64,000 nt of DNA from Cyanobacteria bacterium LVE1205-1 (GTDB lineage: Bacteria; Cyanobacteriota; Cyanobacteriia; CAIUCS01), in the NCBI GenBank assembly GCA_041879355.1, contig CP089922.1:864498-928497 (forward strand), given 5' to 3'. Below, one piece after another: positions 12,574-58,499 of this stretch. The translations under genes were made by a program, and so were the position numbers. Under the pieces are notes generated by a model. That model worked only from the letters and a program-made list of their open reading frames with translations, was not told where the DNA came from and did not search any database. The stretch's first letter is position 1. The number at the start of each line of letters is the position of its first letter.

Positions 12574-12650
12574 GGCGATGCTCCAGAGATATTAAAAAAT
12601 ATGAGTACATTCGTCCCCCGTCCAGGGGAAGAATCAACAGGTCTAGGACT

Positions 12651-12805
12651 GGTTGACTGACAAAAGTTGTATGCCCTCACCCCTAACCCCTCTCCCAGGG
12701 GGCGAGGGGAGCCGATTCCACCCCTCCTGTTCCCTCTCCCGATGGGAGAGGGCTAGGGTGAGGGCTTTCGGGGTTTTGGCTGAGAAGTTTTGTCAGTCAA
12801 TCAGG
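12651..12805. mobile_element. MITE-like palindromic element, copy 1 (about 155 bp, TIR TTGACTGACAAAAGTTGT)
   Basis: Near-identical copies at 21148, 25119, 43792 and 56224. It has nested inverted repeats (GCCCTCACCC/GGGTGAGGGC) and flanking 9 bp direct repeats. Confidence 0.7.
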
Positions 12806-12824
12806 GTCTAAGTTGTAACCCTCA

Positions 12825-20868: not shown

Positions 20869-21147
20869 AGTTGAAAGGTGATATTAATGATAAAAGAACA
20901 ATCATAGAGTTGCTCTATTGAATTATACTCGACTTCCTCTGGTGAAAACAGAGTGGTGAATCAGGTTCATTTTCTAAGCCCTAGGGGTGTGGGAAATGAA
21001 CCTGAATATAAGTGAGGTATACCATTGGGTGCTACTGCCAATAGTTGGTTGACAAGTGCAATTGAAAGTAGTTTATGTCTTGATAGATTAGAAAAAGGAA
21101 GTTACCCCCCGCCGTACTAATCTTTTGTGATTCATACTTCCTACCCT

Positions 21148-21300
21148 GGTTGACTGACAAAAGTTGTACGCCCTCACCCCCAACCCCTCTCCCAGGGGGC
21201 GAGGGGAGCCGATCCACCCATCCGGTTCCCTCTCCCATCGGGAGAGGGCTAGGGTGAGGGCTTTCGGGGTTTTGGCTGAGCAGTTTTGTCAGTCAATCAG
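21148..21300. mobile_element. MITE-like element, copy 2, flanked by a perfect 9 bp TSD CTTCCTACC
   Basis: Same TIRs and core as copy 1. The direct repeat CTTCCTACC abuts both ends. Confidence 0.75.
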
Positions 21301-25067: not shown

Positions 25068-25118
25068 TGGTTTACTCCTGAAGTTTGAAACATCTGGTTA
25101 GTTGAATCTTGGGTATCT

Positions 25119-25274
25119 GGTTGACTGACAAAAGTTGTACGCCCTCACCCTCAACCCCTCTCCCAGGGGGTGAGGGGAGCCGATTCCACCCCTCCCGGGT
25201 TCCCTCTCCCATCGGGAGAGGGCTAGGGTGAGGGCTTTCGGGGTTTTGGCTGAGAAGTTTTGTCAGTCAATCAG
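25119..25274. mobile_element. MITE-like element, copy 3 (between rfbB and rfbA), with a degenerate 9 bp TSD (CTTGGGTAT / CTTAGATAT)
   Basis: Same TIRs and core as the other copies. Confidence 0.7.
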
Positions 25275-41664: not shown

Positions 41665-42305
41665 TATAATACTCCCCATATTCTGGACAGGTTAATAAGA
41701 TAGTCTCGCTGCCAATAGACTAAGAAACTATACGGAGGAGATTGCAAGCCATACAGCGAAAACGACATACCCCAGAGTTTAAGACGAAAGTGGTCGGGGA
41801 ATAAAACGATCAACGAAATCGCCAGTGAAATGGGGATTCACGCAACCCAGATTACTCAATGGAAAAAACAGGCTCAGGAAGGACTCAAGGAGATCTTTGC
41901 GGATCGCCGAGGGAAGAGCCAGGAACCCTTAATTGAGAACCTTTACCAGAACATTGGTCGGATCCAAGTGGAACTGGAATGGTTGCAAAAAAAATCTGGT
42001 CTTACCTCTTGAATCAAAGCGGGAATTCATTGAACTCGCAAACCGAGAGATCAGCATTGTGCGTCAGTGCGAATTGCTGGGACTCAATCGAAGCAGCCAG
42101 GGAAAGCTCACCTAACGAGTACCTGATGGGAAAGTTGGATGAGCAGTATACCCAAACTCCGTTCTACGGGGTATTGGGAATGACGGAAGTCCTGCGAGCC
42201 CAAGGAGAAGAGGTCAATCCTAAACGAGTCCGTCGTCTACTCAGGGTAATGGGGTTAGAAGCTATCTATCCCAAACCCAAAATCTCATCGCCAGGTGAGA
42301 ATAGT
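41665..42305 (+). mobile_element. IS3-family element copy A, 3'-truncated (orfA plus the first roughly 110 codons of orfB, ending at a junction with IS5)
   Basis: orfA reads ...GIHATQITQWKKQAQEGLKEIFADRRGKS...LEWLQKK, followed by an A8 slippery run. orfB N-terminus is ...ISIVRQCELLGLNRSS...PFYGVLGMTEVLRAQGEEVNPKRVRRLLRVMGLEAIYPKPKISS. The 5' 110 bp match the reverse complement of 47356..47466. Confidence 0.7.
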
Positions 42306-43021
42306 CGTCATAGTGGCGGCTGCTCCCCGCTGGGCAATGGCTTCATGACAGGCGAAGGTGTCATAGGCTCCATCGCCCGAAACTTGAGCAATCTCACCAG
42401 CAATGCCCTCTAGCAAACTGGGCAATATCTCGCTGTCGTGAAAGTCATTGGTGGTGACTTCAGCGACCATACTCTCGCCAGTGGACTCATCGATACCGAG
42501 GTGCAGCTTACGCCAGGTGCGCCGTTTGCCCACCCCATGTTGTCGGGATTTCCATTCCCCCTCTCCATACACTTTTACCCCCGTAGAATCCACCACAACA
42601 TGTCGAGCCCTGCTCTGCGGTTGAACCGGTATAGAAACCGATAAGGCAGCCAATCGACGCGATACCGTGCTGTGGTCGGGCATGGGTAGGGAGATGTCCA
42701 TCAACTGAAATACCGATTCAACAAATCCTTGAGCTTGACGCCCAGCCAGATGGAATAGGCTCTTGAGGGTCGCTACAGTCGCAATCGCCGTGTCACTGTA
42801 GAGTTGAGAGGCTCCTCGCCGACCCGTCGCGGTGTTCATTACCCATTGCTCAAGGGCATCTTTGCTCAACCATAGGGTGAGAGTGCCGCGCTGCTTCAGA
42901 CCAGCGTTACAATCAGACCAGTTGCGGACTCGGTACGGCATAGATGTCAGGTTTTAGGTGGTACTTCAACTTTACGCTATACCTACCCCGTCCGTAACAC
43001 CCTATTTATGCAACAACGCCC
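42306..43021 (-). mobile_element. IS5-family element copy 1, 3'-truncated (N-terminal 210 aa of the transposase)
   Basis: Transposase MPYRVRNWSDCNAGLKQRGTLTLWLSKD...DDE region ...VVDSTGVKVYGEGEW is about 95% identical to copy 2 at 50141..51070. The shared IR GGCGTTGTTGCATAAATAGGG lies at 43000-43021. It diverges from copy 2 after ...AQRGAAAT. Confidence 0.75.
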
Positions 43022-43187: not shown

Positions 43188-43493
43188 TTACCGCAGTCTT
43201 TCTAAGGCATCAGGAAAAGTGATAGTCAACAGTTGCCGCAAGTTTCGGTTAGTAACATTACCACAAGATAGCCAAAGGATTTGAGGAGGGCTTCCCAATC
43301 GGCAGACCAAATCAACAAAATCGCTATCCTTGGTCATGATGACAGCATTCTCAACTCGTGCTGCCTCAAAGATTTCGATATCCTTGGCATCTCGTAGCCC
43401 GAAATCTCGCAACGCCATCCCATTTACTTTAAATGTAGCATTTAGCCAGCAGGCTAACGTTGGAGGTAACTGAGCATCAATCCAAATATTCAT
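43188..43493 (-). CDS. DUF5615 (PIN-like) putative toxin
   Basis: 101 aa, MNIWIDAQLP..L...L....F.V.....FG...A.D.EIFE.A......I.TKDSDF. Its start overlaps the upstream DUF433 gene by 4 bp. Confidence 0.7.
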   Translation of the reverse strand: MNIWIDAQLPPTLACWLNATFKVNGMALRDFGLRDAKDIEIFEAARVENAVIMTKDSDFVDLVCRLGSPPQILWLSCGNVTNRNLRQLLTITFPDALERLR

Positions 43494-43804
43494 GCGGTCA
43501 ATCGAGGAAAGTCAGTACGCCGTGCAGCAAATAGCAAGCAAGCTTGAATGTCTTCAGGCTCTAAATCAGGAAAGTCTTCCAAGATTTCTTTGATATTGAC
43601 GTTTTCAGCCAACATCTCTAAAATATCACTCACTCGAATTCTCATTCCTCGAATGCAAGGGCGACCACCGCACTGCCCAGGAGTCTCCGTGATACGGGTC
43701 AATAAGTTAGGTGACTGGCTCATTATGGATTTAGATGATGGGTTAGAGTTGTTGTCTTCATCATACAAGCCCTCGTGAGTAGTATAAAGTTGGTTGATTG
43801 ACAA
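43490..43804 (-). CDS. DUF433 putative antitoxin
   Basis: The C-terminal GGRPCIRGMRIRVSDILEMLAENVNIKEILEDFPDLEPEDIQACLLFAA is the DUF433 signature. Confidence 0.7.
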   Translation of the reverse strand: MSINQLYTTHEGLYDEDNNSNPSSKSIMSQSPNLLTRITETPGQCGGRPCIRGMRIRVSDILEMLAENVNIKEILEDFPDLEPEDIQACLLFAARRTDFPRLTA

Positions 43805-43889
43805 AAGTTGTACGCCCTCACCCTAGCCCTCTCCCATCGGTAGAGGGCTAAGGTGAGAGCTTTCCGGGTTTTGGCTGAGAAGTTTTGTC
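43792..43889. mobile_element. MITE-like element, copy 4, a short variant (98 bp, central core deleted), flanked by a perfect direct repeat AGTATAAAGT(TG)
   Basis: TIRs TTGATTGACAAAAGTTGTACGCCCTCACCC ... GGTGAGAGCTTTCCGGGTTTTGGCTGAGAAGTTTTGTCAGTCAATCAG. Confidence 0.7.
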
Positions 43890-44206
43890 AGTCAATCAGA
43901 GTATAAAGTTGAAGAAGAAAAGCTACTGCATCAGAGGACTAACAACTCAGCTGGAGCGGACTGACGAGAGATTCTGGTCGGGGTGCAAAGGTTATTAGTC
44001 GCCGCTGATTGGGAACGTTATGCCGAAACCGAGAAGTCCATTTAAGTTGCTTGTTCCTAGCCGAGATTAGACAAGCAAAGGTTGTTGGATTCGGTGAGCG
44101 GCGATCGCTGTTGCAAGCGGCAATCCGTTCAAGTATAATAAATGATTGGTATGGGCATAAATTATTTCAGCCGTTATGCATCAACAATTGCAACAGAATT
44201 TCCATA

Positions 44207-45745
44207 ATGACGAGTACCCAACAACGCGCCGCTCTGCAACGCCAAATCTGGCAAATCGCTAATGATCTTCGCGGCTCAGTGGATGGCTGGGATTTTAAGC
44301 AATATGTCCTCGGCACGCTGTTTTACCGCTTTATCAGTGAAAACTTTACCAGCTACATTGAGGCTGATGATGACAGCATCCACTACGCCGAGCTGCCCGA
44401 TAGTATTGTTACCGACGATATTAAAGACGATGCCATCAAAACTAAAGGCTATTTTATTTATCCTAGCCAGTTGTTTGCCAACATTGCTGGCAATGCCAAC
44501 GCGAACGAAAGCCTGAATACTGACCTAGCGGCGATTTTTGCGGCGATCGAAAGTTCTGCCAATGGCTACCCCTCCGAGATGGACATCAAGGGGCTGTTTG
44601 CCGACTTTGACACCACCAGCAACCGCCTCGGCAACACGGTTAAAGATAAAAACCTACGCTTGGCTGCGGTACTAAAAGGCGTGGCAGGGCTAGATTTTGG
44701 TGGTTTTGATACCAGCCATATCGATTTGTTTGGCGATGCCTATGAGTTTTTGATCTCTAACTATGCCGCCAATGCAGGTAAATCGGGGGCGAGTTTTTTA
44801 CGCCGCAGCATGTTTCGCGGTTGATTGCCCAGCTTGCCATGCACCGGCAAACCAGTGTCAATAGAATTTATGACCCCGCCTGTGGTTCGGGTTCGCTGCT
44901 GTTGCAAGGGAAAAAGCATTTTGATGCTCATATTATTGAGGATGGTTTTTACGGGCAGGAGATTAACCACACGACCTATAACTTGGCGCGGATGAATATG
45001 TTTTTGCATAACATCAACTACGACAAGTTTAATATGCAGTTGGGCAATACCCTGATTGACCCGCATTTTCAGGATGACAAGCCCTTTGATGCCATCGTCT
45101 CCAACCCTCCCTATTCAGTGAACTGGATTGGTAGTGATGACCCGACGCTGATTAATGACGATCGCTTTGCCCCTGCGGGTGCTTGCGCCGAAGTCGAAGG
45201 CGGATTTTGCGTTTGTGTTGCATTGTTTGAGTTATTTATCGAGCCGGGGACGGGCGGCGATCGTCTGCTTCCCTGGCATTTTTTATCGGGGCGGGGCGGA
45301 AGCCAAAATCAGAAAGTATCTGGTGGATAACAACTATGTGGAAACGGTGATCGCCCTTGCGCCGAATCTGTTTTTTGGCACGACCATCGCTGTGACGATT
45401 TTGGTGCTATCTAAACACAAGCCCGACACGACTACCCAGTTTATTGATGCCAGTGGTTTGTTTAAGAAGGAAACGAACAATAACACCTTAACGGATGACC
45501 ATATTGCGGCAATTATGGGGGTGTTTGACAGTAAGGAAAATGTGGTTCATTTTGCCCGATCGGTAGCCTGTGAAGAGATTGCAGCGAATGATTACAATCT
45601 ATCGGTGAGTAGTTATGTGGAAGCCAAGGACACCCGCGAAATCACGGACATCACTGCCCTGAATGCTAAATTAAAAACCACTGTTGCCAAGATCGATCGC
45701 CTGCGGACTGAGATTGAGGCGATCGTGGCGGAGATTGAAGGATGA
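44207..45745 (+). CDS. hsdM: Type I restriction-modification methyltransferase subunit HsdM, orphan (no hsdS or hsdR nearby) and split by two indels (about 44810, about 45180). GC content is higher than in neighbouring sequence.
   Basis: An N-terminal HsdM_N region ([32 protein letters not shown]), the AdoMet motif [11 protein letters not shown], and the catalytic NPPY (VSNPPYSV). Confidence 0.75.
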
Positions 45746-45823
45746 GTAAATCAAAACAGCCTATGGCTTCGATCGATACACCTGATAGCTATAACATATG
45801 CTTGATAAAAGACGATCGCTTTT

Positions 45824-46147
45824 ATGGAAAAACAGGAGGAAATATGGCAAGCAGTTGGCAGAATTACAGTTAATTTTCCATTGCTAGAATGTGATAAGTG
45901 CGCGATTACTGTAATGCGGTGGCTAAAAAAGCGGGGCATTGAAGCAAAGATTCTGCGATTACGAACCAAACGCCGTAGCGAAAACTTTATCACAAGCGAT
46001 CGCTATGGACTAGAAGAAGCAATAACTGAAAATGGGACTCATTACGGAGTAGAAGTCATGGGAAAAGTATTTGATAATTTATCTGCTGAAGGCTTGTCTC
46101 GTGAAGATTGGCTAAAAGACTTTAGGGCGTTGCAGGATAAAGTATGA
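45824..46147 (+). CDS. Hypothetical protein. The last 8 codons are read from the terminal IR of the adjacent IS1-family element, so the gene is 3'-truncated by the IS.
   Basis: The ORF runs into the sequence TTTAGGGCGTTGCAGGATAAAGTATGA, which recurs at 51160-51185 as the IS1 end. Confidence 0.35.
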   Translation: MEKQEEIWQAVGRITVNFPLLECDKCAITVMRWLKKRGIEAKILRLRTKRRSENFITSDRYGLEEAITENGTHYGVEVMGKVFDNLSAEGLSREDWLKDFRALQDKV

Positions 46148-46750
46148 ATCATGAAGAGAACAGGACAGAAGGGTCATGAAGATAATGAATCAACAACCGC
46201 ACAGAGTAACGCAACATATCTACAGACTTGGAATAGCAGAAGGTTTTACGGTGCAATCGTGCCAGATAGTGACCTAACCGAGAGTTTTCTCCCTCAACTC
46301 GCTTCATGGAAGTCTTGCTAATAATCTGATCACCATCAGGGATAAAACTTGGATATACAGTCCATCCATCAGTGACATAGAAATAGCATTGCCATGCCAC
46401 TACTATTGTCCATAATGGCTCAAAAGTCTCAGCACTATGATCACCTAAAGTCCAAGCTAGGATGCCCTTACGGAAATGGTCTACTGCTGTCCACACCCAA
46501 ATCTTGTTTTTTTGATCCGATAAATGTTTCCAGTTCATCCCATTCGCCCACATCGGGGATATTCTCTGGGGGATCGCATCAGGTAACTTCTTGCCTTTTT
46601 GTTTAAACCAATCAATGACTGTGGTGTGATGTACTCCCATCACTCTTTCTATAGCCCTGAATCCCATGCCATTGAGTATGGTACTCCCCAATGTCAAGAC
46701 AGAAAAAGAGTGAATTTAAGAAGTAATCTCGCTTAGCAGTGCATTTGTTG
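46125..46750 (-). mobile_element. IS1-family element (InsB-like transposase ORF 46149..46697), apparently lacking an upstream insA
   Basis: MGFRAIERVMGVHHTTVIDWFKQ (HTH) ...WVWTAVD...DHSAETFEPLW...YVTDGWTVY...RVEGENSRLGHYLARLHRKTFCYSKSVDMLRYSVRLLIHYL matches IS1 InsB. Confidence 0.7.
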
Positions 46751-47466
46751 TTGATGTTACATTAATTACATCACCTCCTTGTAAGGCATTTGTTGGTTAA
46801 TGCTGGACATAAGACAGGAAGACTCAATGCGAATCCATTACAAGGAGGCATTGCCTTTTCTGTGAACCATAGCTGGTGTCTGATAATCCAACCACTGATG
46901 TAAACGATCGTGGTTATAAAATCTGAAATAGTCCCCAATCCCTTGAATTGCCTCTGGCACAGACCTGTAGGACTTTAGGTACACATCCTCGTATTTCAAT
47001 GAGCGCCAAAGCCATTCCACAAAAATGTTGTCTAGGACTCGACTACGCCCATCCTGACTGATTGTTTCCCTCCTTTGAGTAAACGGTCAGTAAAAGCAAT
47101 GCTGGTAAATTGGCTGCCCTGGTCGGTATTGAAAATCTCTGGTATCCCTTGAGAGAGCACTTTCCAGGGCATCCAGACAAAGGGTTCCTGGCTCTGGCTC
47201 TTCCCTCGGCGATCCGCAAAGATCTCCTTGAGTCCTCCCTGAGCCTGTTTTTTCCATTGAGTAATCTGGGTTGGGTGAATTCCCATTTCACTGACAATTT
47301 CGTTGATCGTTTTATTCCCCTTGAAAACCTCTAAGACCACTTTCGTCTTAAACTTTGGGGTATGTCGTTTTCGCTGTATGGCTTGCAATCTCCTCCGTAT
47401 AGTTTCTTAGTCTATTGGCAGCGAGACTATCTTATTAACCTGTCCAGAATATGGGAAGTATTATAT
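46750..47466 (-). mobile_element. IS3-family element copy B, internally deleted. orfA is fused in frame to the last roughly 65 codons of orfB, giving a 118 aa ORF at 47032..47388 plus a 60 aa ORF at 46838..47020.
   Basis: MQAIQRKRHTPKFKTKVV...GIHPTQITQWKKQAQGGLKEIFADRRGKSQSQEP | ...IFNTDQGSQFTS...YLKSYRSVPEAIQGIGDYFRFYNHDRLHQWLDYQTPAMV. The terminal 110 bp are inverted relative to copy A. Confidence 0.7.
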
Positions 47467-47572
47467 TGTACGTGAGCATATTTTTGCTAATCTTAATAGC
47501 GATTGCATGATCTAGCGGTCATAGATCATGTTTTTGTCAATGCGCAAGTCCTAGAGACTTAAGTGAAATCAC

Positions 47573-48236
47573 ATGAAAGAGAAACTTAAACTAATCCTCA
47601 GTGAACAGGGCATTTTCCCTACTATAGATAATTTTCGGCGCTTACCTCAAATAAGCAGGTGGTTAGTAAGTGGTTGCAGGGGCATCGCACCGCCGCCAGT
47701 AAAACGTATGGTGATCAAGAGCTATTTGAGAACTTACGATCTTAATTGGTTTATCGAAACTGGAACCCATTTAGGCGATACCTTAGCTGATGTGGCCTTT
47801 GATAAATCATTGCAAACAGTGAGTATTGAATTAGCTGATAACTATTACCATACTGCTCAAAAGCGCTTTGCAAACTATACCAATGTTGAGCTTTTTCATG
47901 GAGACAGTGGAACGTTAATACCCCAGGTAGTTGCTAGGTTACAAGAACCTGCACTTTTCTGGCTTGATGGACATTATAGCGGCGGAGTAACCGCTAGGGA
48001 GAGATTTAGAAACACCAGTTAGTCAGGAACTTCAGGCAATTTTAGCCTCTCCTGTGAGAGGGCATGTCATTTTAATTGATGACATACGATGCTTTGATGG
48101 TACTCACGATTATCCTTATTTAGATGACTTTTTAGCTGCTATCCGTACCGATGGTCGTTATCACATTGAGGTGTCGGCCGATATTTTGCGTATGACTCCT
48201 AACTACTCCCGGTTCACCCATTTTTGCGAGAGTTAG
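47573..48236 (+). CDS. Putative class I SAM-dependent methyltransferase-like protein, split by an indel near 48020-48055
   Basis: Two consecutive ORFs: ...FIETGTHLGDTLADVA...VELFHGDSGTLIP...LFWLDGHYSGG, then ...GHVILIDDIRCFDG. The family assignment is weak. Confidence 0.35.
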
Positions 48237-48325
48237 AAGAATTCTATTGAGGAGTAAAAGATTGACCACTAATCTGAGTATGAATAGTAGGGGGAAACCC
48301 AAGTAAAACAAGAATACGCTGCTAT

Positions 48326-50040
48326 AACCTACATTCCGCAGGTTGACAGGGAATAAAAGATGCGGGATGTTCTAAGCTAAAGGGAAGTCCTTCTAGCAGT
48401 AGGTTCCTCCCTTGCAAATCGAGAATTTAGACCATCTCGGCTTAGTGGCGGGGATGATTGATGAATTAGGTCTAGTAGAGCTGACCAACGAGCAGATTGA
48501 ACCCCACTGCCTGGAGCATGTGAGTGCAGGGCAAGTGGTGAAAGCGATGATCCTCAACGCCCTGGGCTTTCTGAGTGTGCCGTTATACCTATTCAGCGAG
48601 TTTTTTGACAGTAAGGCGGTGTCCCACCTGAATGATGACCGCTTAGGGCGGGTGTTAAATCAACTCTACGAGGCAGGCATCACCCCATTGCTCATGAAGG
48701 TGGCACTGCAAGCGGTACAGCGGTTTGGCATCAACATCGAGCAGTGCCATCTAGATTCGACCTCGATATCGGTTGAGGGGGAGTATGCCTGGGCTACAGT
48801 GACTAAACCCAAGGGGTCAGCAGAGAAGGACAGTCGTGAGGAACCGATTCCGATTGAGATTTGTCGAGGCTATTCCCGAGATCACCGACCAGATTTGAAG
48901 CAGTTCTTGCTCACCGTGTAGCGCCGATGGGGGTGTACCGCTGTGGTTCAAGGTAGCCAGTGGCAATCGCCCCGACAGTGAGGTGTTGCCCAAGTGCTGA
49001 AAAACTTTAGCGAGCAGTGGACTCAGGAGGGAGTGTTTGTGATGGATGCTGCCTTTTACACTCAGCCAAACCTACAGCAGGTGGGGAGTCTGGGGTGGCT
49101 ATCGCGGGTACCCCTGACCCTAAAGGCAGCTCAAGCACTGGTTCAGAGCGAGGTGAGTCTGCTGTCAGAGGTCACTTGCGACTCATTGGATTATCGGATG
49201 TGGGAAGTCGAACCTATGGCGAGGTAGCCCAGCGTTGGGTGTTAATCGAAAGTCAGCACCGCAAAGCCAATGATGCCCTGTGGCGACTGGAAGTAGAGAA
49301 GCTAGAAAGTCGGCTCAATGGGCAGCTCAAGGCTCTCACCCAGACAGTGTTTGCCTGCAAACCCGATGCCTTGGACGCGGTGATGGCGTTTCAAGATAGC
49401 TTGGAGCTCCATCAATTGACCCACATTAGCCAACCCAGTCCTGTCCAAGCGAGCCCCCGGTCGTCCGTCCAAGGAGGCTGAGCCGGTCTCGGTTCAGGGC
49501 TATCAACTACAGGCAACGTTGGAGCGCAAAGCCAATACCGAAGAGACCTTTAGCCACCAGCGTAGCCACTTTATCCTGGCAACCAACCAATTGGATAAAA
49601 CGCGGTGGTCAGCGCAGAAGCTATTGCAGGAATATAAAGCTCAACAAACTGTAGAGCGAGGGTTTCGCTTCCTCAAAGACCCCCTGTTCTTTGTCAGTAG
49701 TGTGGTTGTCAAAAAGCCCCAGCGGGTCGAGGCACTGGCACTGATTATGGCTCTCACCTTGATGGTCTACACCCTGGCAGAACGCAAGCTGCGTCAGACC
49801 CTCGAAGACCAAAACCAGACGGTGTGCGACCAACGCAAACAGCCTACTGCTAAGCCCACCTTTCGTTGGATTATGCAAAAGTTTCAGGGTATTCACTGGA
49901 TCAACCTGGAGGGACAGCACCAGATCAGCAACCTGAGCGATGAGCGACGACTGATTATTCGCCTATTGGGACCACCAGTTGAGCGGTATTACTACGCATC
50001 TGGTTAATCATTTATCAATCTGCGGAATGTAGGTTAAAAC
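48326..50040 (+). mobile_element. IS1634-family element (about 1.7 kb) with 23 bp terminal IRs AACCTACATTCCGCAG(G/A)TTGA and a 5 bp TSD ACGCT. The transposase is split into 3 ORFs.
   Basis: A DUF4277-like N-terminus (MQIENLDHLGLVAGMIDELGLVE...HVSAGQVVKAMILNALGFLS..LYLF.EFF), ...RGYSRDHRPDLKQ, and the C-terminal DDE region. ACGCT is found at 48321-48325 and 50041-50045. Confidence 0.75.
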
Positions 50041-50067
50041 GCTAGTTTAGAAGATCTATATGGCGTT

Positions 50068-51125
50068 GTTGCATGAATAGGGTGTCACGAACGGGGTAGG
50101 TATAGCGTAAAGTTGAAGTACCATCTAAAACCTGACACCTATGCCGTACCGAGTCCGCAACTGGTCTGATTATAACGCTGGTCTGAAGGAGCGCGGCAGT
50201 CTCACCCTATGGTTGAGCAAAGATGCCCTTGAGCAATGGGTAATGAACACCGCGACGGGTCGGCGAGGAGCCTCTCAACTCTACAGTGACACGGCGATTG
50301 CGACTGTAGCGACCCTCAAGAGCGTATTCCATCTGGCTGGGCGTTAAGCCCAGGGATTTGTCGAATCGGTGTTTCAGTTGATGAATATCCCCTTACCCGT
50401 GCCCGACCACAGTACGGTATCGCGTCGATTGTCCGCCTTATCGGTCTCTATACCGGTTCAACCGCAGAGCAGGGCTCGGCATGTTGTGGTGGATTCTACG
50501 GGGGTAAAAGTGTATGGAGAGGGGGAATGGAAAGCCCGACAACATGGGGTGGGCAAACGGCGCACCTGGCGTAAGCTGCACCTCGGTATCGATGAGTCCA
50601 CTGGCGAGAGTATGGTCGCTGAAGTCACCACCAATGACTTTCACGACAGCGAGATATTGCCCAGTTTGCTAGAGGGCATTGCTGGTGAGATGGCTCAAGT
50701 TTCGGGCGATGGAGCCTATGACACCTTCGCCTGTCATGAAGCCATTGCCCAGCGGGGAGCAGCCGCCACTATTCCGCCTCGCCATGATGCCCGCCCCACA
50801 CTCAGCATGGAGTACCTAACCCGACCCACCCCAGGGACTAAATCTTGCAACGTATTGAGCAGGTGGATCGTGCGGACTGGAGGCAAGAGAGCGGCTATCA
50901 CCGTCGGTCTCTTGCTGAAACCACTATGTTTCGTCTCAAGGTCACCTTTGGGGGGCGCGTCCGATTCGCGGAGTTTTGACAACCAGGCTGTCGAGCTCTT
51001 CTTGCAGTGTGCGGCGCTGAATCGTATGATTCAAGTGGCTAAGCCTGATAGCTATCCGGTTGAAGCTTAACTTACTGACCTTAACGGCGAAACCCCTGAC
51101 CCTGGATTATTCATGCAACAAAGCC
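50068..51125 (+). mobile_element. IS5-family element copy 2, full length (IRL GGCGTTGTTGCATGAATA / IRR GGCTTTGTTGCATGAATA). The transposase has one frameshift at about 50345-50370.
   Basis: ORFs 50141..50347 and 50369..51070 together give a roughly 310 aa DDE transposase. The 18 bp imperfect IRs are at both ends. Confidence 0.8.
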
Positions 51126-51185
51126 TATCTTCATGACCCTTCTGTCCTGTTCTCTTCATGATTCATACTTTATCCTGCAACGCCC
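51126..51185 (+). mobile_element. 60 bp terminal remnant of an IS1-family element (identical to the reverse complement of 46125..46185)
   Basis: TATCTTCATGACCCTTCTGTCCTGTTCTCTTCATGATTCATACTTTATCCTGCAACGCCC is shared with the IS1 copy at 46125. Confidence 0.65.
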
Positions 51186-51377
51186 GGCGTTCATTTGGTT
51201 AATCAGTCGATTTTGCAGAGCATTCATTCCCGAAGAACAGCAATTTTGCCATCCATTTACAAAAACAATATAAGGACGTGATGATTGCACTGCTGCTGGT
51301 CTTGTTAACAACGCTGTTCCAAGCAATGAAGTGAACATTACCGAACTAACCTTGGTCAGTATCTTACCTAATTTCAT
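51186..51377 (-). CDS. Integron cassette 2 ORF, 3'-truncated by an IS1 remnant: a signal peptide plus a possible alpha/beta-hydrolase (lipase-like) start
   Basis: MKLGKILTKVSSVMFTSLLGTALLTRPAAVQS|SRPYIVFVNGWQNCC.... The last 9 codons of the listed ORF (51156..51185) come from the IS1 IR. Confidence 0.4.
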
Positions 51378-51501
51378 TCAGTTACCTACTACTTATAACT
51401 TTTCCAAACAATTTTCGGCGAATCAGTTTAAATACTGCTTTACCCTTTGACTTTTACATCCAGCAGATGAATTCTAACTGCACCTTGATAAAAAGCTAGC
51501 G

Positions 51502-51588
51502 GTCTAACGTTCCCGCTCACCGGACGTAGATGAATTTGGCAACCAACTGACTGCTTAAATACGTTCCGGTGCAGCGGGCTTGTTAGAC
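51502..51588 (-). other. Integron attC recombination site (87 bp): inverse core GTCTAAC, imperfect palindrome with 2 extrahelical bases, core GTTAGAC
   Basis: GTCTAAC-G-TTCCCGCTCACCGGACGT...(loop)...ACGTTCCGGTGCAGCGGG-CTT-GTTAGAC. The arms pair except for a bulged T and a bulged C on the plus strand. It lies 24 bp downstream of the cassette 1 stop. Confidence 0.7.
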
Positions 51589-51612
51589 TGCTGTCGCGAC
51601 TACACACCCTGA

Positions 51613-52935
51613 TTACTCCTCAGGATCTCTTGAAAATCTGTATTGCTGGATAGGCAAGTTATCTCGGCGTTCAGGTAATCTTTCCAAGGGACTAATGAAA
51701 AGCCTAGATCTCGATTCTTCTATAATACGAACCCCACCTTGATTTCTAACAAAGCTCTGAAATTCCTGTAAATTCTGAATTCCAACTCCCAATTGCAGCG
51801 AAAAATCAAGAGTCTTTGCAGATGGATCAAAAGCTTCACCCATAGCAAGATTTCTAAACCAACGAAGCTTTAAGTTTTCACTTAAAGTAGCAGGAGGAAT
51901 CATAGGAGATGATGCTGGTATCTGGGCTGTTAAATGGCAGCTAAGACAAGAGGAAACGGGATTATCTACTGGGCCGTTCCCTCGTCCAGCCCAGCCTAGA
52001 GTTTTTGGAGGATTAATCCCAGCAGGTGGATTAGAGCGATATTTTACAATTGGTGCATCAGAGTCAATCCATGATTCCTTGGGACGTTGCCCTGTATCAT
52101 ACATTGACTGTGTTAAGTCTGGATCATTACCCCACATCAGAGTTAGTGGACGAACCCTTTTCCAAGGTGAGTCAGCCTGCACACTTGAATCATACTGAAA
52201 GGTTCCAAATACCCATCCACTAGCTTTAGAACGCCCATCGCGTACTGCAACATCAATCTGTAATAATCTAACTTTAGTAGCTTGAATAGTATCTACATTT
52301 CCACTTCTATCAATGTCTGCAACCCACTCAGGAGAGCCGTCAAGGTAAGGAACCTCTGAAACAGGTGCGGTGGTGAATAACAATTTATAGGAAACTGTAC
52401 CCTCTGGGAATTTTGCTTTCTCAACATCTGGCTTATCAGGCTTAGACCACACTTGCCCAAGAGTAAATCCTCCAGCACTGTTGTAAAAACCGATTGCATA
52501 ATTTCTATACTGCTGGCTTTGCTGTGGAGATAGCTCAAATGGTCTTGAGCTACGCTCACGTGTTAATCCATGAACAAATTCACGACCATTATTCCCCCAA
52601 TGCAACCAAGGCGCGTGAAACCATTTGCGAACAGTGTTTTTTTGAACCGCAAAATCATTTTCTAAACTACCTTCATAGCTGTAGTTCAAGACAGCCATTA
52701 AATACTCACGAGGGGAAGTTCGGAAATCAATGTTCATCCAGGGAGCATTTTCAGCTTCGGGTTTTTGTTGAGGGTAATCCTGGCTTAAGACAAACTTGCT
52801 TTCACTCCAGTTAGATGGGGGACTATATCCAATATCTGGGAATGTTGCAGCTAGTACTTGATTCAAAAACAACGATTGTATAAATACAAGTATTGCAACT
52901 GTGAGAAAGCATTTCTTTATCTTCTCAATGAACAT
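51613..52935 (-). CDS. Integron cassette 1 ORF: a 440 aa secreted protein of unknown family with a single CXXCH motif
   Basis: A Sec signal peptide (MFIEKIKKCFLTVAILVFIQSLFLNQVLA|AT), no recognisable domain, and ...NPVSSCLSCHLTAQ near the C-terminus. It is bounded by the attI R box (53014-53020) and the attC. Confidence 0.7.
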   Translation of the reverse strand: MFIEKIKKCFLTVAILVFIQSLFLNQVLAATFPDIGYSPPSNWSESKFVLSQDYPQQKPEAENAPWMNIDFRTSPREYLMAVLNYSYEGSLENDFAVQKNTVRKWFHAPWLHWGNNGREFVHGLTRERSSRPFELSPQQSQQYRNYAIGFYNSAGGFTLGQVWSKPDKPDVEKAKFPEGTVSYKLLFTTAPVSEVPYLDGSPEWVADIDRSGNVDTIQATKVRLLQIDVAVRDGRSKASGWVFGTFQYDSSVQADSPWKRVRPLTLMWGNDPDLTQSMYDTGQRPKESWIDSDAPIVKYRSNPPAGINPPKTLGWAGRGNGPVDNPVSSCLSCHLTAQIPASSPMIPPATLSENLKLRWFRNLAMGEAFDPSAKTLDFSLQLGVGIQNLQEFQSFVRNQGGVRIIEESRSRLFISPLERLPERRDNLPIQQYRFSRDPEE

Positions 52936-53013
52936 TGAAACACCTAGTTTTATTTTGAGTACTTTACCGTCGAGCCAGAATCATGAAGAAAACACTGCCT
53001 AGAATTTGAAGCA

Positions 53014-53200
53014 GTCTAACTATGTATTAGACAGAAACTTTCTGTCTAATCTGACTATAGGCGATTTAGCCCGAAAGTCAAATTTCTGCCTAATCACCCT
53101 ATATGTCATGTTATACGGAAACTTTCTGACTAAATACCCCATACGTTATGTTATGAAGAATCTTTCTGAATAATCATCCAAATAGCGTGTTAGCCCGACT
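53014..53200 (-). other. Putative attI: a simple site (L box GTCTAAT, 5 bp spacer, R box GTTAGAC on the minus strand) plus four tandem degenerate 40 bp direct repeats between it and intI
   Basis: Plus strand 53014-53032 is GTCTAACTATGTATTAGAC. Repeats GAAACTTTCTGTCTAAT (53034), AAATTTCTGCCTAAT (53080), GAAACTTTCTGACTAAA (53118) and AATCTTTCTGAATAAT (53159) alternate with related 20 bp spacers. There are several GTTA-containing core-like heptamers. Confidence 0.55.
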
Positions 53201-53242
53201 AGATCAGGTATTATTTATGATAGTCACACTATTTATTTAGTT

Positions 53243-54214
53243 ATGCAGTCTGAGCCATCGCATCGAAAGCTATTAGATAGGGTACGGGATCAAGTCAGGG
53301 TTAAGCATTACTCCTATCGCACTGAAGAGACTTATGTACAGTGGATTCGGCGATTTATCTTGTTTCACAACAAGCGGCATCCTAGCGAGATGGATGGCGA
53401 TGAAGTGAATGCCTTTTTGACCCACTTGGCGGTGCATGAAAATGTGGCAGCATCAACCCAAAACCAAGCTCTATGCGCCATTTTGTTTTTATATCGTGAG
53501 GTATTGCAGCAAGAGCTAAACCTCAATCTGGACACAGTGAGAGCAAAGCGTCCCCATTACTTGCCAACGGTCTTGACTGTTGAAGAAACTTTAGAAATCT
53601 TAAAAAATCTTACGGGTGTTTATCAGATTGTTGCCAAGTTGCTTTATGGTTCGGGATTACGCCTCAATGAAGCATTGTCCCTACGGGTTAAGGATCTTGA
53701 TTTTGCCCAACAGCAGATTATTGTCAGAGATAGTAAGGGGATGGAAAGTCGTGTAACAATGCTGCCCAAAAATGTTGTTGAGCAACTTAAAGAACATTTA
53801 CAACAGGTAAAGCGTACACATCAACAGGATCTAGATAGAGGTTATGGGGAGACGCTGTTACCCTTTGCTTTACAGAAAAAATATCCTAACGCCGCCAAAG
53901 AATGGATTTGGCAATATGTATTTCCTGCGGGTCGCATTGCCAAAGATCCGCGTAGTGAATTGATGTGTCGCTATCATCTTCATGAAAGCGGAATGCAAAA
54001 ATCGCTGAAGCAAGCCGTGAGAATTGCCAAGATCGAAAAACGGATCGGATGTCATACCTTTCGCCATAGTTTCGCTACACATTTATTGCAAAATGGCTAT
54101 GATATCCGCACGGTGCAAGAGTTATTGGGACATAAAGATGTAAAGACAACGATGATTTATACCCATATGCTGAATCGGGGTGGAAAGGGTGTGATTAGTC
54201 CGCTTGATCGCTAG
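53243..54214 (+). CDS. intI: Integron integrase
   Basis: 323 aa tyrosine recombinase with catalytic R ([15 protein letters not shown]), H-x-x-R ([13 protein letters not shown]) and Y (MIYTHML). It has the IntI-specific additional domain ([20 protein letters not shown]) and an IntI-type C-terminus ([28 protein letters not shown]). Confidence 0.93.
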
Positions 54215-54254
54215 ATGGAATACAGCAAAGCAAGGCTTGCTATATATTTGAACA

Positions 54255-54365
54255 ATGGCAAAAGCAAAAAGTCGATATGTATGTAATGACTGTGGTGAAG
54301 ACTTTCCACAGATGTATGGCAAATGTCCTACTTGCTCTAGTTGGGGAACCTTGCAAGAGGAAATA
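54255..54365 (+). pseudogene. radA: 5' fragment (first roughly 37 codons) of DNA repair protein RadA/Sms. The rest of the gene is absent from the window.
   Basis: MAKAKSRYVCNDCGEDFPQMYGKCPTCSSWGTLQEEI is the RadA C4 zinc-finger N-terminus. After residue 37 the ORF reads unrelated sequence. Confidence 0.7.
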
Positions 54366-54599
54366 ATTCCTGTCATGTCCACAAGTACCAATGCGATCGC
54401 ATTAAGCTATAGCAAACCCTGTATACTCGCGTATCTTAGGATAACGAAAGCCAAGTACTATATCCTCTTTGGGAATACCTGCTTCCACTAAATCAGGGGT
54501 AGTCCTTACCCCAAAATCATTACCTTCTTGCCACTACCATAAACGAATTGGGTAAAAAACAACCCTGCCATGATTTACGTCAGTGTGAATTGGATCAAT

Positions 54600-55847
54600 T
54601 CATTTATTTTCCTTGCGACGACGTTGAAGAAATTCAGGAATATCTAATCCGGGGGACGGTGGAGGAGATGGAGTGGGCTTAGACTCATTGGGTGGAACGG
54701 GAAGTTGGGATGGGAAGGATTTGTCTCCTCTCCAGGGGGTTGAAGGGGGTGAAGTACCGAAAGACTGGGATATATCAGCGGCAACTTCTGGCATAAAGCC
54801 AGTGGCAATTACAGTAATGCGGACTTCTCCCTGGATACGGTCATCAATCACAGCCCCAAAAATGATATTTGCATTAGGATCAACGACATCGTAAATTGCT
54901 TCCGCCGCCGCATTAACTTCGTATAACGTTAAATCGTGTCCACCCGTGATGTTAAAGACTACCCCCCGGGCTCCATCGATAGAGGTTGCCAACAATGGAG
55001 AGGCGATCGCTGCTGCTGCTGCCTCTCTTGCCCTAGACTTGCCAGAACCAACTCCAATACCCATCAAGGCGGAGCCTGCGTCAGCCATCACTGCCCTAAC
55101 ATCAGCAAAGTCAACATTAACTAATCCGGGGATGGTAATAATATCTGTAATACCTTGTACACCCTGACGCAAAACATCATCAGCGAAACGAAACGCTTCA
55201 TGCACCGGAGTTTGTTCGGAAACAGCAGACAAAAGCTTATCATTAGGAATGACAATTAAAGTATCCACATTGGCTTGTAAGGCAGCGATTCCTTCCTCAG
55301 CCTGATTAGTTCGCCGCCGTCCTTCAAAGGCAAACGGTCTGGTTACCACACCCACCGTAAGGGCACCAGCTTCTTTTGCCATTTCAGCGACAATGGGCGC
55401 TGCACCAGTGCCGGTTCCTCCTCCCATGCCAGCGGTAATAAATACCAAATCTGCATGTTCGATGGAAGCGGAAATATCATCCCTGGATTCTTCTGCGGCT
55501 TTGGCACCAATGGCTGGGTTACCACCAGCCCCCAAACCCCGAGTTAATTTTTGCCCCATTTGCAATCGCTGGGGGGCAGCAGACTGCAAGAGAGCCTGAG
55601 CATCAGTATTCATTGCCCAGAACTCAACCCCTGTAACTTCACTGGCAATCATGCGGTTGACTGCATTACTTCCGCCTCCACCCACACCAATTACTTTAAT
55701 GCGAGCGATACTACTGGGTATGATATTGTCTATTTTCATTTTTTCCCCTGGAGAACTATTCATACCCGGGAATGGAATGTACTCATGAGCTTTGTCAGTG
55801 TGAGATCCAGAGTGGTTAAATGGGTTAGAAGTGATCATTGTCAGCAA
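54600..55847 (-). CDS. ftsZ: Cell division GTPase FtsZ
   Basis: [17 protein letters not shown], the tubulin signature GGGTGTG, and NTDAQAL, in 415 aa. Confidence 0.95.
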
Positions 55848-56223
55848 ACGTTAAGAAATATGAACAATAGACATTCCCAATTCATGAAAGTAATTTAACG
55901 TTATCTAATGCCCATCAAATTGATTTGTTGCCAATTTAGTAGCTGACTTTCAACGATGAATACTACAAACCAAATATAATATACTCTGTTTTGACTATTT
56001 TGAATAGAGATTATTGACAAACCCTATTAGCCCAGTAATTTACTAGGAAAGTTGTGACTACCCTGTGAAAATTAAACCCAATAATTTTATAGTCAAACTA
56101 TTATTGCATTAAGATTAATAGCAATCATAGGCGGGTACATTGAATCATTCTTTCTAAGACTGGGAAATCTATATTACCCATGGGGGGTTCCCAAGAGAGT
56201 ATCCCAATGTTGCACGTTTGCCC

Positions 56224-56339
56224 CTGGTTGACTGACAAAAGTTGTACGCCCTCACCCCCAACCCCTCTCCCAAGGGGCGAGGGGAGCCGATCCACCCCTC
56301 CGGCTCCCTCTCCCATCGGGAGAGGGCTAGGGTGAGGGC
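56224..56339. mobile_element. MITE-like element, copy 5, truncated (right TIR arm missing)
   Basis: CTGGTTGACTGACAAAAGTTGTACGCCCTCACCC...GGGTGAGGGC then unrelated sequence. Confidence 0.65.
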
Positions 56340-56465
56340 GGCAAAAATGGGATGCACCCGGTTCCCAAATCAAAATTGTTGTCAACATCCATCCCTTGCC
56401 GACAGGAATCTTAACCGTGTAAAGTGATAAGTTAAATTGGTTTTATTGAGCATTTAGGACGATGA

Positions 56466-58499
56466 ATGAGTAAGCATAGGATAGGCGAATTAAATCAATT
56501 TGCTCAACATAACCCTGTATTACCGACCGGTGAGGGCAACAAATCTCAGGAAGCCGAGCCATCTCCGGGATGGTCTATTGAAGATAGTGAAGAACTGTAC
56601 CGAATTAAGGGATGGGGTGATCCTTATTTTTCCATTAATGCAGCGGGTCATGTAACAGTTTCTCCAAAAGGGGACAGGGGCGGCTCCCTAAATCTATTTG
56701 AATTGGTTAATGCTTTACGGCTCCGGAACCTGGGGTTGCCTCTATTAATACGATTTTCAGATATTTTAGAAGACCGGATTGAAAGACTGAATGCAGCGTT
56801 TGCCAAAGCGATTGCTCGGTATAATTACTGTGGCGTTTATAAGGGTGTATTCCCAGTTAAATGTAATCAACAACGTCATTTAGTTGAAGACTTAGTGAAG
56901 TTTGGTAAACCCTTTAAATTTGGATTAGAAGCGGGTTCAAAACCAGAATTAATGATTGCTCTGGCTTCATTGGATACCCCTGATGCTCTATTAATTTGCA
57001 ATGGATATAAGGATAGAGAATATATTGAAACAGCGATTCTGGCTCAACGGTTGAATCGAACAGCCATTATTGTACTGGAACAACTGGAAGAAGTAGAATT
57101 AGCCATTGCTGCCAGTCATAAGTTAGGGATCAATCCCATTTTGGGGATTCGGGCTAAACTCAGCACTAGGGGGGTTGGGCGCTGGGGTACTTCTGCGGGC
57201 GATCGCGCTAAGTTTGGACTAACAATCCCGGAAATACTGGATGTGGTGGAACATTTACGAGCAGCGAATCTACTGGATTCTTTGCAACTATTGCATTATC
57301 ATATTGGATCCCAAATTCCCGACATTACCGTAATTAAAGATGCGATTACAGAAGCCAGTCGTATTTATGTGGAACTGAGTCGATTGGGAGCCAAGATGGG
57401 CTACTTGGATGTGGGAGGTGGTCTGGGAGTTGACTATGATGGTTCAAAAACCAATTTCTATGCGTCTAAGAACTACAACATACAGAACTACGCCAATGAT
57501 ATCGTTGCAGAGCTAAAGGATGTTTGTACTGAAGCCCGCCTAAAAATGCCGACCCTCATTAGTGAAAGTGGTCGGGCAATTGCGGCACACCAATCAGTTC
57601 TTATATTTGATGTGCTAGGTTCTAGCGAAGTTCCTGCATTAGCCATTGAACCGTTGCAGGAAGAAGAACCCTTACTCATTCGCAACCTCTATGACACCTA
57701 TCAGTCAATTAATGATGACAATTATCAGGAGTGTTACCATGATGCGACTCAATTTAAGGAGCGGGCAATTAGTTTATTTAACTTGGGTTATCTCAGTTTG
57801 AAAGAACGGGCAAGGGCGGAACGATTATATTGGGGGTGTTGTCATCAGATTCTACCCATTGTCAGACGCCAGGAATACGTTCCTGACGATTTGGAAGACT
57901 TGGAAAAAATCATGGCTTCCATTTACTATGTGAATTTATCCGTATTTCAGTCTGCCCCAGATAGCTGGGCAATTGATCAATTATTCCCGATTATGCCTAT
58001 CCATCGGTTAGATGAAGAACCCACCCAACGGGCAACCCTGGCAGATTTAACCTGTGATAGTGATGGCAAAATCGATCAATTTATTGATTTGCGTGATGTA
58101 AAACATATTTTAGAACTTCATTCTTTACAACCCGAAACATCTTCCCCAATCCTGTCTTCTTCCCTCAAGTCCCTTTCCGCCCAATCTTATTATTTAGGGA
58201 TGTTTTTGGGAGGAGCTTATCAGGAAATTATGGGTAACCTGCATAATCTGTTTGGGGATGCAAATGCAGTTCATATCCAATTAACTCCAACTGGTTATCA
58301 GATTGAACATGTGGTGAAGGGGGATACTATGACCGAAGTATTGGGGTATGTCCAATATGATTCAGAGGATTTAATTGAAAGTATCCGGCGACAAACTGAA
58401 TGGGCGTTACAATCCCAACAAATTACCTTGACTGAATCCCAATTGTTGTTGCAAAATTATGAACGTAGCCTCAGTAGCTATACTTATTTGTCAAGTTGA
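56466..58499 (+). CDS. speA: Biosynthetic arginine decarboxylase
   Basis: 677 aa PLP fold-III decarboxylase, ...PLLIRFSDILEDRIERLNAAF..A......Y.G.Y.GVFPVKCNQQRHLVEDLV. Confidence 0.9.
   Translation: MSKHRIGELNQFAQHNPVLPTGEGNKSQEAEPSPGWSIEDSEELYRIKGWGDPYFSINAAGHVTVSPKGDRGGSLNLFELVNALRLRNLGLPLLIRFSDILEDRIERLNAAFAKAIARYNYCGVYKGVFPVKCNQQRHLVEDLVKFGKPFKFGLEAGSKPELMIALASLDTPDALLICNGYKDREYIETAILAQRLNRTAIIVLEQLEEVELAIAASHKLGINPILGIRAKLSTRGVGRWGTSAGDRAKFGLTIPEILDVVEHLRAANLLDSLQLLHYHIGSQIPDITVIKDAITEASRIYVELSRLGAKMGYLDVGGGLGVDYDGSKTNFYASKNYNIQNYANDIVAELKDVCTEARLKMPTLISESGRAIAAHQSVLIFDVLGSSEVPALAIEPLQEEEPLLIRNLYDTYQSINDDNYQECYHDATQFKERAISLFNLGYLSLKERARAERLYWGCCHQILPIVRRQEYVPDDLEDLEKIMASIYYVNLSVFQSAPDSWAIDQLFPIMPIHRLDEEPTQRATLADLTCDSDGKIDQFIDLRDVKHILELHSLQPETSSPILSSSLKSLSAQSYYLGMFLGGAYQEIMGNLHNLFGDANAVHIQLTPTGYQIEHVVKGDTMTEVLGYVQYDSEDLIESIRRQTEWALQSQQITLTESQLLLQNYERSLSSYTYLSS

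Follow-up and report, generated by a model that had tools for sequence, protein, structure and literature searches.

Evidence for a small, complete integron of the cyanobacterial type on the chromosome of a Pseudanabaena-lineage cyanobacterium

Results

The integrase gene and its product

A stretch of 64,000 nt from the genome of Cyanobacteria bacterium LVE1205-1 (CP089922.1, assembly GCA_041879355.1, positions 864,498-928,497; referred to below as the window) was found to contain the components of an integron, namely an integrase gene (intI), an attI region, an intact gene cassette and the attC site at which that cassette ends. intI lies on the plus strand at 53243..54214 and encodes an intact integron integrase of 323 aa. 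The attI region, which is conserved in 12 related genomes, extends from the crossover to the intI start codon (53020..53242), and cassette 1 (1,512 bp, 51508..53019) and its attC (attC1, 87 nt, 51502..51588) are both on the minus strand, reading leftward from intI. The elements that define a complete integron, attI, intI and at least one attC, are all present. A first-pass annotation, made from the sequence and its open reading frames (ORFs), had likewise read the region as an integron integrase, an attI with extra repeats, one intact cassette and a canonical attC, and we recovered all of these at the same positions. For comparison, 80 loci encoding IntI relatives were collected, with one genome per species. 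The nearest IntI proteins come from Pseudanabaena genomes and metagenome-assembled genomes (MAGs), and the chromosomal neighbours of the integron in the window are ftsZ and an arginine decarboxylase gene.

The IntI protein scored 458.1 bits against the NCBIfam integron integrase model TIGR02249 (cutoff 265), compared to 144 and 135 bits against the XerC and XerD models, respectively, a difference of about 315 bits in favor of the integron-integrase model. The XerC and XerD matches were each split into two separate stretches, which is expected if an IntI-specific segment interrupts them. The Pfam domains Phage_int_SAM_4 and Phage_integrase were both identified, and the protein aligned from end to end (E 9e-90) with VchIntIA of the Vibrio cholerae superintegron (PDB 2a3v), the closest solved structure. 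Residues at the catalytic positions are identical to those of VchIntIA, these being R (in GSGLRL), K (DSKG), H and R (HTFRHS), H (LGHKD) and Y (MIYTH), and the roles of the R-K-H-R-H-Y residues in tyrosine recombinases are well established. The alignment also proceeds without gaps through KYPNA...W.Y.FP, the IntI-specific alpha-I2 segment, which is identical in the two proteins and which touches the extrahelical bases in the VchIntIA structure (PMC3053210). The first-pass annotation had based its identification of the ORF on the RHRY residues and the IntI-only insertion and had proposed a comparison with XerC/D as a check; the identification was upheld on both counts. Cyanobacterial genomes contain abundant IntI homologues at 63-96% identity, and hundreds of the close ones are already annotated as integron integrase.

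attC1 belongs to a family of cyanobacterial attC sites

The proposal that 51502..51588 is a canonical attC was borne out by its boxes, its folding, its scores against covariance models and the covariation in its family. attC1 has perfect R'' (GTCTAAC) and R' (GTTAGAC) boxes, unpaired spacers of 3 nt, an L box of 6 bp, two extra bases and a variable loop. When 51495-51595 was folded as single-stranded DNA, z-scores of -5.6 and -6.9 were obtained for the two strands, and none of 200 shuffled sequences folded as well. A scan in which RYYYAAC...GTTRRRY pairs had to form a stable stem gave attC1 as the sole site in the 64 kb. Applied to the relatives, the same scan pointed to sites of ~86 nt upstream of intI in many loci, the number of sites found there by this simple scan, before a covariance model was used, being small. 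In an alignment of 13 sites (A1) the L-box and stem sequences vary yet stay complementary, with compensatory changes at 9 of the 18 predicted pairs. A covariance model built from these 13 sites (R1, consensus length 87 nt) matched 106 sites in 81 sources (the window and the 80 loci), and 95 of these were on the strand opposite intI, as expected, with nearly all located upstream of intI. In the alignment of the R1 matches (A2) 92% of cells are paired and 14 of the 18 pairs show compensatory changes, a level reached by none of 500 shuffles, and the signal collapses when the partners are slid by 1-3 columns.

To attC1 itself, R1 assigned 79.8 bits. A second model (R2), for which 32 attCs from cyanobacterial integrons were used (A6), none of them from the window, assigned it 70.7 bits (E 1e-15), which is the outcome of the covariance check that the first-pass annotation had proposed. 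R2 had exactly two hits in the window, attC1 and a site on the plus strand at 43937-44023 that is described below. An Rfam search (evalue mode, 44000-58000) gave spurious miRNA and lncRNA matches on unrelated repeats, there being no attC family in that database.

The two extra bases on the R''-L'' arm of attC1 are T51565 and C51572 of the window plus strand, six apart. Since the cassettes are read leftward from intI, the plus strand is the predicted bottom strand, and so the extrahelical bases are on the strand on which they had been predicted. On the top strand, 94 of the 106 family members have the matching G and 100 have the matching A. The pattern most easily excised by IntI1 is T-N6-G, each of the four integrases tested excised cassettes most efficiently at the six-base spacing, and other extrahelical bases occur in natural sites, such as attCdfrA1 with A-N7-8-C (PMC3053210). 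Given the six-base spacing and this natural variation, the T-N6-C pattern reads as a habit of the lineage rather than as a departure from the mechanism. We also considered whether the extrahelical C, together with the arginine that IntI has at the position of W157 in VchIntIA, might constitute a new recognition mode. This idea was dropped as a strong claim since IntI1 also has an arginine there (R168), and it is further weakened by natural and engineered attCs with other extrahelical bases that recombine (PMC3053210).

The attI site marks the point at which related integrons diverge

On the minus strand the attI simple site consists of GTCTAAT (53032-53026), ACATA and GTTAGAC (53020-53014), giving GTCTAAT-ACATA-G/TTAGAC at 53014..53032, where the slash denotes the crossover, between 53020 and 53019. 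The distance from the G of GTT to the ATG of intI is 223 bp. Similarity to the 12 related genomes, which is 77-94% at the DNA level across attI and intI, starts at window positions 53009-53024, and in the alignment of these genomes (A3) the invariant columns start at AAC/TATGTATTAGA. To the left of the crossover the bases vary, for instance GTCTAAC, TGCTAAC, GGATAAC and GCCCAAC, and are RYYYAAC-like, as expected of R' ends derived from cassettes. A pattern scan of metagenome contigs yielded four more attI copies, each with a different RYYYAAC-like left flank, and in two of the four there were family attCs 1-2 kb away. This brought the total to 16 related attI-intI loci (12 genomes and four metagenomic contigs) with 16 different left flanks. 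The fact that similarity stops at the predicted crossover, with different DNA beyond it in each relative, provides comparative evidence for cassette turnover, and that first cassettes differ despite IntI identities of up to 96% indicates that turnover in the lineage has been recent. Sequence and comparative breakpoints therefore agree on the attI-type simple site proposed 223 bp upstream of intI, and the suggested search for the same intI with other cassettes gave a clear answer, since all 16 related attI sites carry different first cassettes.

Several of these first cassettes could be delimited. In the closest relative (L003, 96% IntI identity) the first cassette (533-2450) comprises a complete Eco29kI restriction-modification pair followed by a family attC, and in this case a defence system is carried as a cassette by a cyanobacterial integron. 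In L004 the first cassette has three genes and in L005 it has an ORF of 133 aa, in both cases followed by a family attC.

Repeated units and a candidate promoter in attI

Between the crossover and intI, four repeated units of the type TTAKAC-nGAAAnTTTCn-GnCTAA with R-box-like half-sites were identified at 53027-53049, 53079-53093, 53111-53133 and 53151-53173. For the most part the units are palindromic pairs of half-sites 11 nt apart. The motif AAANTTTCTGNCTAA has seven matches in the window, of which six are within 53027-53173. The units are kept across the 12 genomes, with one genome lacking one unit, and so the multi-repeat attI described in the first-pass annotation stands, with four conserved units. 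A relaxed form of the motif was counted in the 330 nt that precede intI, and 53 of 79 loci had two or more matches, against a background of 0.14 matches per 330 nt. These 53 are nearly all of the cyanobacterial loci; two further loci with multiple matches carry the labels Rhizobium and Planctomycetota, and no more than one match was present in any other non-cyanobacterial locus. The attI1 site of class 1 integrons carries the repeats DR1 and DR2, and by analogy the units may be putative accessory IntI-binding sites. In the literature that we searched, no description was found of the repeated attI motif, of the attI of cyanobacterial integrons or of Pseudanabaena integrons.

A candidate cassette promoter (Pc), TTGACT-16 nt-TATAGT, is located on the minus strand at 53054..53081 and directed into the cassette. 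The candidate status of this site comes from its match to the consensus at 10 of 12 positions, and in the 12-genome alignment both hexamers are invariant at most of their bases.

Cassette 1 encodes a putative c-type haem protein

The boundaries of cassette 1, from the attI crossover to the G/TT of attC1, were derived from the simple site, attC1 itself and the comparative breakpoints. Its ORF (51613..52935, minus strand) encodes a predicted secreted protein of 440 aa with a CxxCH motif and a cytochrome P460/c'-beta-like domain. The ORF starts 84 nt past the G/TT crossover and stops 24 nt before attC1, both distances being as given in the first-pass annotation. That annotation had also considered the cargo to be without a recognisable family, which we revise, as there are more than 2,400 homologues in several phyla in which CxxCH is invariant, and the protein has a P460/c'-beta-like fold. 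A few of these homologues are named cytochrome c domain-containing protein or have a precomputed match to Pfam Cytochrome_P460 (PF16694), and the cargo itself scored 19.4 bits against PF16694, which is below the cutoff of 27. Cytochrome P460 and c'-beta proteins (PF16694) are ~135-160 aa in length, and at 440 aa the cargo is roughly three times larger. Both the CxxCH haem c attachment motif and the P460-type beta-sheet fold are present, and the N-terminus is a hydrophobic helix, consistent with export. We regard the cargo as a putative haem protein of the c type, either periplasmic or secreted, in which one domain is P460/c'-beta-like. Searches of NCBIfam, the PADLOC defence systems and PDB sequences gave no match for it.

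No match to either cassette protein of the window was obtained by tblastn against the 80 related loci, and hence the cargo is not shared with the nearest integrons. Homologues of it are nonetheless cassettes elsewhere. In L091 and L092 a homologue occupies the second cassette position of a divergent integron, between attCs with G/TTAGGC and G/TTAAAT, and in L090 (3772-7040) a homologue follows an IntI gene (54% identical) and is in turn followed by its own attC of a different type. The P460-like haem protein family is thus a recurrent cassette in unrelated integrons. The IntI gene of L090 is on the same strand as its downstream cassettes, which may represent an inverted-integrase arrangement or a local inversion. 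In L083 (4537-7323) and L084 (585-3371) a homologue that is 84% identical to the cargo comes after a tyrosinase gene and an attC-like site. It adjoins Tn7-like (TnsA), DndB and BREX-like genes and may be what remains of a cassette within a defence or mobile island.

The array beyond attC1

The next cassette begins with TTAGAC (51507-51502), as the first-pass annotation had reported. Only a 5' stump of this cassette 2 is present (51186..51507, minus strand), in which an ORF starting at 51377 is cut after ~64 codons by an IS1-family insertion sequence (IS) terminus at 51185/51186. The first 61 aa of the ORF match the N-termini of proteins of 190-395 aa (best identity 82%), which is why it is considered a stump. 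An IS1-family copy with its transposase at 46149..46697 (minus strand) has one end at 46125-46184, and the terminal fragment that cuts cassette 2 (60 nt, 51126..51185) matches this end at 100% identity but is inverted relative to it. The fragment is followed by an IS5-family element (50062..51125, plus strand) with 18-nt terminal inverted repeats, a frameshifted transposase with DDE_Tnp_1_5 and DDE_Tnp_1 domains, and TAT on both flanks, and then by a degenerate IS4-like element (48325..50036, plus strand) with 22-nt inverted repeats and DUF4277 and DDE domains distributed over several ORFs. A partial second copy of the IS5-family element, inverted and 96% identical over 711 nt to 50062-50772, is at 42310..43020 on the minus strand. 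The first-pass annotation had described cassette 2 as wrecked by nested IS insertions, and of this the truncation by IS elements holds, but clean nesting is not supported. The IS1 fragment is not continued beyond the IS5 element (50037-50061 is unrelated), and no matching target duplication was found at the flanks of the two IS1 ends. As the flanks do not fit simple nesting, pile-up is the fairer description. Turning back the segment between the two IS5 copies does not restore the IS1 sequence either.

The second R2 hit, attC2 (43937..44023, plus strand), is a decayed member of the same family that is inverted relative to intI. It scored 44 bits with R1 and 64 bits with R2 (E 5e-14), has three broken pairs and has no stable fold (z about 0). 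The site escaped the strict pattern-plus-fold scan because its R' box is GTTATGC, and it and its part of the array had been missed by the first-pass annotation. A copy of a GC-rich short interspersed repeat adjoins attC2 (43791-43911), and other copies are at 12650-12815, 21147-21300, 25118-25274 and 56225-56340. They are 85-97% identical, some are inverted, and it is this repeat family that gives spurious Rfam miRNA matches.

Preceding attC2 is a DUF433/DUF5615 (PIN-like) toxin-antitoxin pair (43188..43804, minus strand; Pfam E 4e-25 and 1e-20), which from its position beside the site is probably cassette content. Beginning at the attC2 crossover is a frameshifted hsdM gene for a type I methylase (44018..45745, plus strand), with HsdM_N and N6_Mtase in separate ORFs. 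L005 also has this hsdM unit, where it comes after a different attC, directly upstream of intI, and identity between the window and L005 begins exactly at the G/TTATGC of the attC2 R' box. This breakpoint at G/TT is a second site at which the rule for cassette boundaries applies. The hsdM unit is either a cassette or a fixed flank of the array. The distal part of the array (toxin-antitoxin pair, attC2 and hsdM) is now 7.5 kb away and inverted, and the two inverted IS5 copies (42310-43020 and 50062-50772) bracket the segment that contains attC2, so that an inversion between them would return attC2 to the canonical orientation. Judging from the orientation of attC2 and the comparison with L005, which are the two observations that point to it, an inversion via the IS5 copies probably placed attC2 in its present orientation.

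Discussion

Interpretation of the locus

We consider it very probable that what lies here is a chromosomal integron of the cyanobacterial type, complete though small, in a genome of the Pseudanabaena lineage. This interpretation is carried by the identification of IntI, the structure of attC1 and its membership of the attC family, the position of the crossover and the presence of differing first cassettes in all relatives. The following model is consistent with these observations. IntI (53243..54214) would bind attI as double-stranded DNA, at the simple site (53014-53032) and probably also at the four units with R-box-like half-sites that flank it, and would recombine attI with the folded bottom strand of an attC hairpin by cutting between the A and C of the bottom-strand AAC (G/TT on the top strand). 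Cassettes would thereby be placed immediately left of 53020, where they may be transcribed from the conserved promoter-like site in attI (53081 to 53054). The current first cassette (53019..51508), with its c-type haem protein, would end in the attC1 hairpin with T and C extrahelical. Past attC1 the array appears to have been damaged, with an IS1-family end cutting cassette 2 and IS5-family and IS4-like elements piled up behind it, and the distal array would have been flipped through recombination between the inverted IS5 copies.

A number of points weigh against this interpretation or parts of it. The alignment of the R1 matches was fitted to the model, so that the covariation counts lean toward structure, and the training sites of both R1 and R2 were picked by a pattern-plus-fold filter. 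The promoter scan of the region found six promoter-like sites where 4.7 were expected by chance. The flanks of the IS elements support no simple order of events, and the array, with only one structurally intact attC left, is nearly exhausted. With one intact and one decayed attC in 64 kb it is smaller than what is strictly termed the array of a sedentary integron, and relatives had up to eight attCs in the sequence retrieved upstream of intI, which was 10 kb or less. Two additional points, the interruption of intI in one relative and the uncertain independence of a second assembly, are taken up below.

The most serious alternative is that the integron is real but a fossil at this locus, a platform out of use that IS elements and rearrangement are eroding, and whose intact appearance reflects recent inactivity. 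The surroundings of attC1 give this some weight, as about 5 kb beside it are filled with IS1-family, IS5-family and IS4-like sequences and an IS3-like transposase fragment, pairing in attC2 has been lost, hsdM is frameshifted and the adjacent radA gene is reduced to a 49-codon stump. In addition, intI is split by an insertion of ~1.25 kb in L042, the complete genome of Pseudanabaena minima str. Chao 2107 (8763-10017), which indicates that such integrons decay in the lineage. The R box of attI in L042 is mutated (CTACT instead of CTAAC), no family attC was found within ~8 kb upstream of its intI, and it looks like an inactivated integron in a cultured strain. In the window, on the other hand, intI is full length with all catalytic positions conserved, attI is as conserved as in the relatives, and attC1 has perfect R boxes and an unbroken stem, while the different first cassettes at 16 of 16 related attI sites, with the closest IntI at 96% identity, point to recent turnover. 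We thus view a fossil as unlikely, although with a chance that is far from trivial, and infer from the sequence that the integron of LVE1205-1 may be active at the present day.

That the junction of intI-attI with the cassette is an assembly chimera, formed at the attI units or IS copies, is highly improbable. The only independent short-read contig (L001, from SRR17230300), which encodes an identical IntI protein, ends at window position 53164, inside attI and before the junction. A 2.48-Mb JGI contig (L002) has the same gene order, with no mismatches and six single-base indels over 13.3 kb, which addresses the question of intI-cassette contiguity that the first-pass annotation had raised. As L002 differs by indels only, its independence of the window assembly is uncertain and the two may share source data. 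Against a chimera, the junction GTCTAAT-ACATA-G/TTAGAC is precisely the composite expected of recombination between attI and an attC, the attC that closes the cassette belongs to the lineage's own family, and any stretch common to the attI units is no longer than 23 nt, too short for most assemblers to be misled by it. Finally, the notion of a Xer-like or phage-type tyrosine recombinase situated by chance beside palindromes such as terminators or interspersed repeats, for which one could cite the lack of an attC family in Rfam, and hence of confirmation from a curated model, and the other GC-rich palindromic repeats of this genome, is practically negligible given the ~315-bit margin over XerC/D, the strand-specific attC family with compensatory changes upstream of intI in dozens of loci, and the similarity breakpoints at G/TT at two separate sites.

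Comparison with known integrons

The first-pass annotation held that integrons are rarely described in cyanobacteria, which is not the case. Reports of them go back to 2007-2008 (Boucher et al. 2007, cited in PMC2426708; Nemergut et al. 2008, PMC2426708), chromosomal integrons of cyanobacteria are included in the IntegronFinder catalogue of Cury et al. 2016 (PMC4889954), and a Cyanobacteria-type attC covariance model was published by Ghaly et al. 2021 (PMC8352920) and applied to environmental data. The integron in the window resembles those known from cyanobacteria (PMC4889954, PMC8352920) in that an intI of the cyanobacterial clade is divergent from the cassettes and the attCs are homogeneous within the phylum. 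Its relatives in Pseudanabaena, Tumidithrix, Leptolyngbya, Stenomitos, Chamaesiphon and other genera have the same ~86-nt attC family and the same attI motif. Nothing categorical distinguishes the window copy, which has one intact cassette and an IS-damaged, partly inverted array.

Compared to the class 1 platform (IntI1 and attI1), the locus has in common a divergent intI, two inverted boxes with crossover at G/TT, box-like repeats between the simple site and intI (DR1 and DR2 in attI1) and the arginine at the VchIntIA W157 position. Similarly, class 1 59-be sites (attCaadA1) share the R''-spacer-L'' arrangement and two extrahelical bottom-strand bases six apart. The locus differs in having four attI units where attI1 has two direct repeats, T-N6-C in its lineage in place of T-N6-G, and a candidate Pc in attI rather than inside intI, and in being chromosomal, without a Tn402/Tn21 context or resistance genes. 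The Vibrio cholerae superintegron (VchIntIA, VCR) is also chromosomal, with lineage-homogeneous attCs and toxin-antitoxin cassettes, and the VchIntIA residues that contact the extrahelical bases, including W219, K209 and Y210 of the KYPNA...W segment, are largely conserved in the window IntI. However, the Vibrio superintegron has more than 100 cassettes at a fixed locus, whereas the window has one intact cassette, at a locus that is radA-adjacent in the nearest relatives only. A further comparison is with Xanthomonas integrons (bioRxiv 10.1101/2025.06.18.660453), which are likewise chromosomal and lineage-wide, with intI or arrays often inactivated by IS elements or rearrangement; they differ in phylum, integrase clade and attC family, and the intI of the window is intact.

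The integron is therefore real but ordinary, the presence of integrons in cyanobacteria and their phylum-specific attC type having already been published, and our general understanding of integrons is unchanged by it. Three aspects have some freshness, these being the presence of a multi-unit attI across the clade, the T-N6-C signature and the recurrence of the P460-like cargo family as a cassette. The value of the locus is that it is a clean, well-delimited cyanobacterial integron for which cassette turnover can be seen comparatively at base-pair resolution. It may be of use as a reference for annotating Pseudanabaena genomes and in the choice of substrates for cyanobacterial IntI, and it flags a widespread, uncharacterised family of P460-like haem proteins as a mobile cassette. 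We offer one further idea as a tentative and rather doubtful one, which is that the cyanobacterial attI is a distinct recombination platform, more elaborate than the attI sites known in detail to date, that, together with the T-N6-C attC signature, forms a recognition code specific to cyanobacteria. If so, the attI units could load several IntI molecules or a regulator, and could couple recombination, intI expression and cassette expression.

Other features of the window

Whole and fragmentary IS elements (IS1-family, IS3-like, IS4-like and IS5-family) form a dense cluster at 41665-41922, 42310-43020, 46125-47465 and 48325-51185, with inverted duplicate pieces 5-8 kb apart, and this cluster is a likely engine of local inversions and deletions. 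A gene for a Tox-PL-2 papain-fold toxin (45824-46147, plus strand) is located just before the IS1-family copy, and a frameshifted pair of ORFs (47573-48236, plus strand) with no Pfam match is found among the IS elements. A PADLOC search with the toxin-antitoxin pair, the Tox-PL-2 protein and the ORF at 47573 returned no defence-system match. In the 5' untranslated region of cassette 1, a stretch of 17 nt (52978-52994) matches the IS1-family end (46146-46162 and 51148-51164) at 16 of 17 positions. This is probably a coincidence, as by a rough estimate ~0.3 such matches are expected by chance.

On the integron's other side, directly after intI, the gene for the DNA repair protein RadA/Sms (radA) is present as an N-terminal stump of 49 codons (54255-54401, plus strand), and no further copy of radA was found in the 64 kb. 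A full-length radA follows intI in L003, L005 and L017, L004 has the same 50-codon stump, and radA is not at this position in relatives with 85-88% IntI identity. This pattern indicates that there was a rearrangement near 54400 in the lineage of the window. The stump is followed by ftsZ on the opposite strand.

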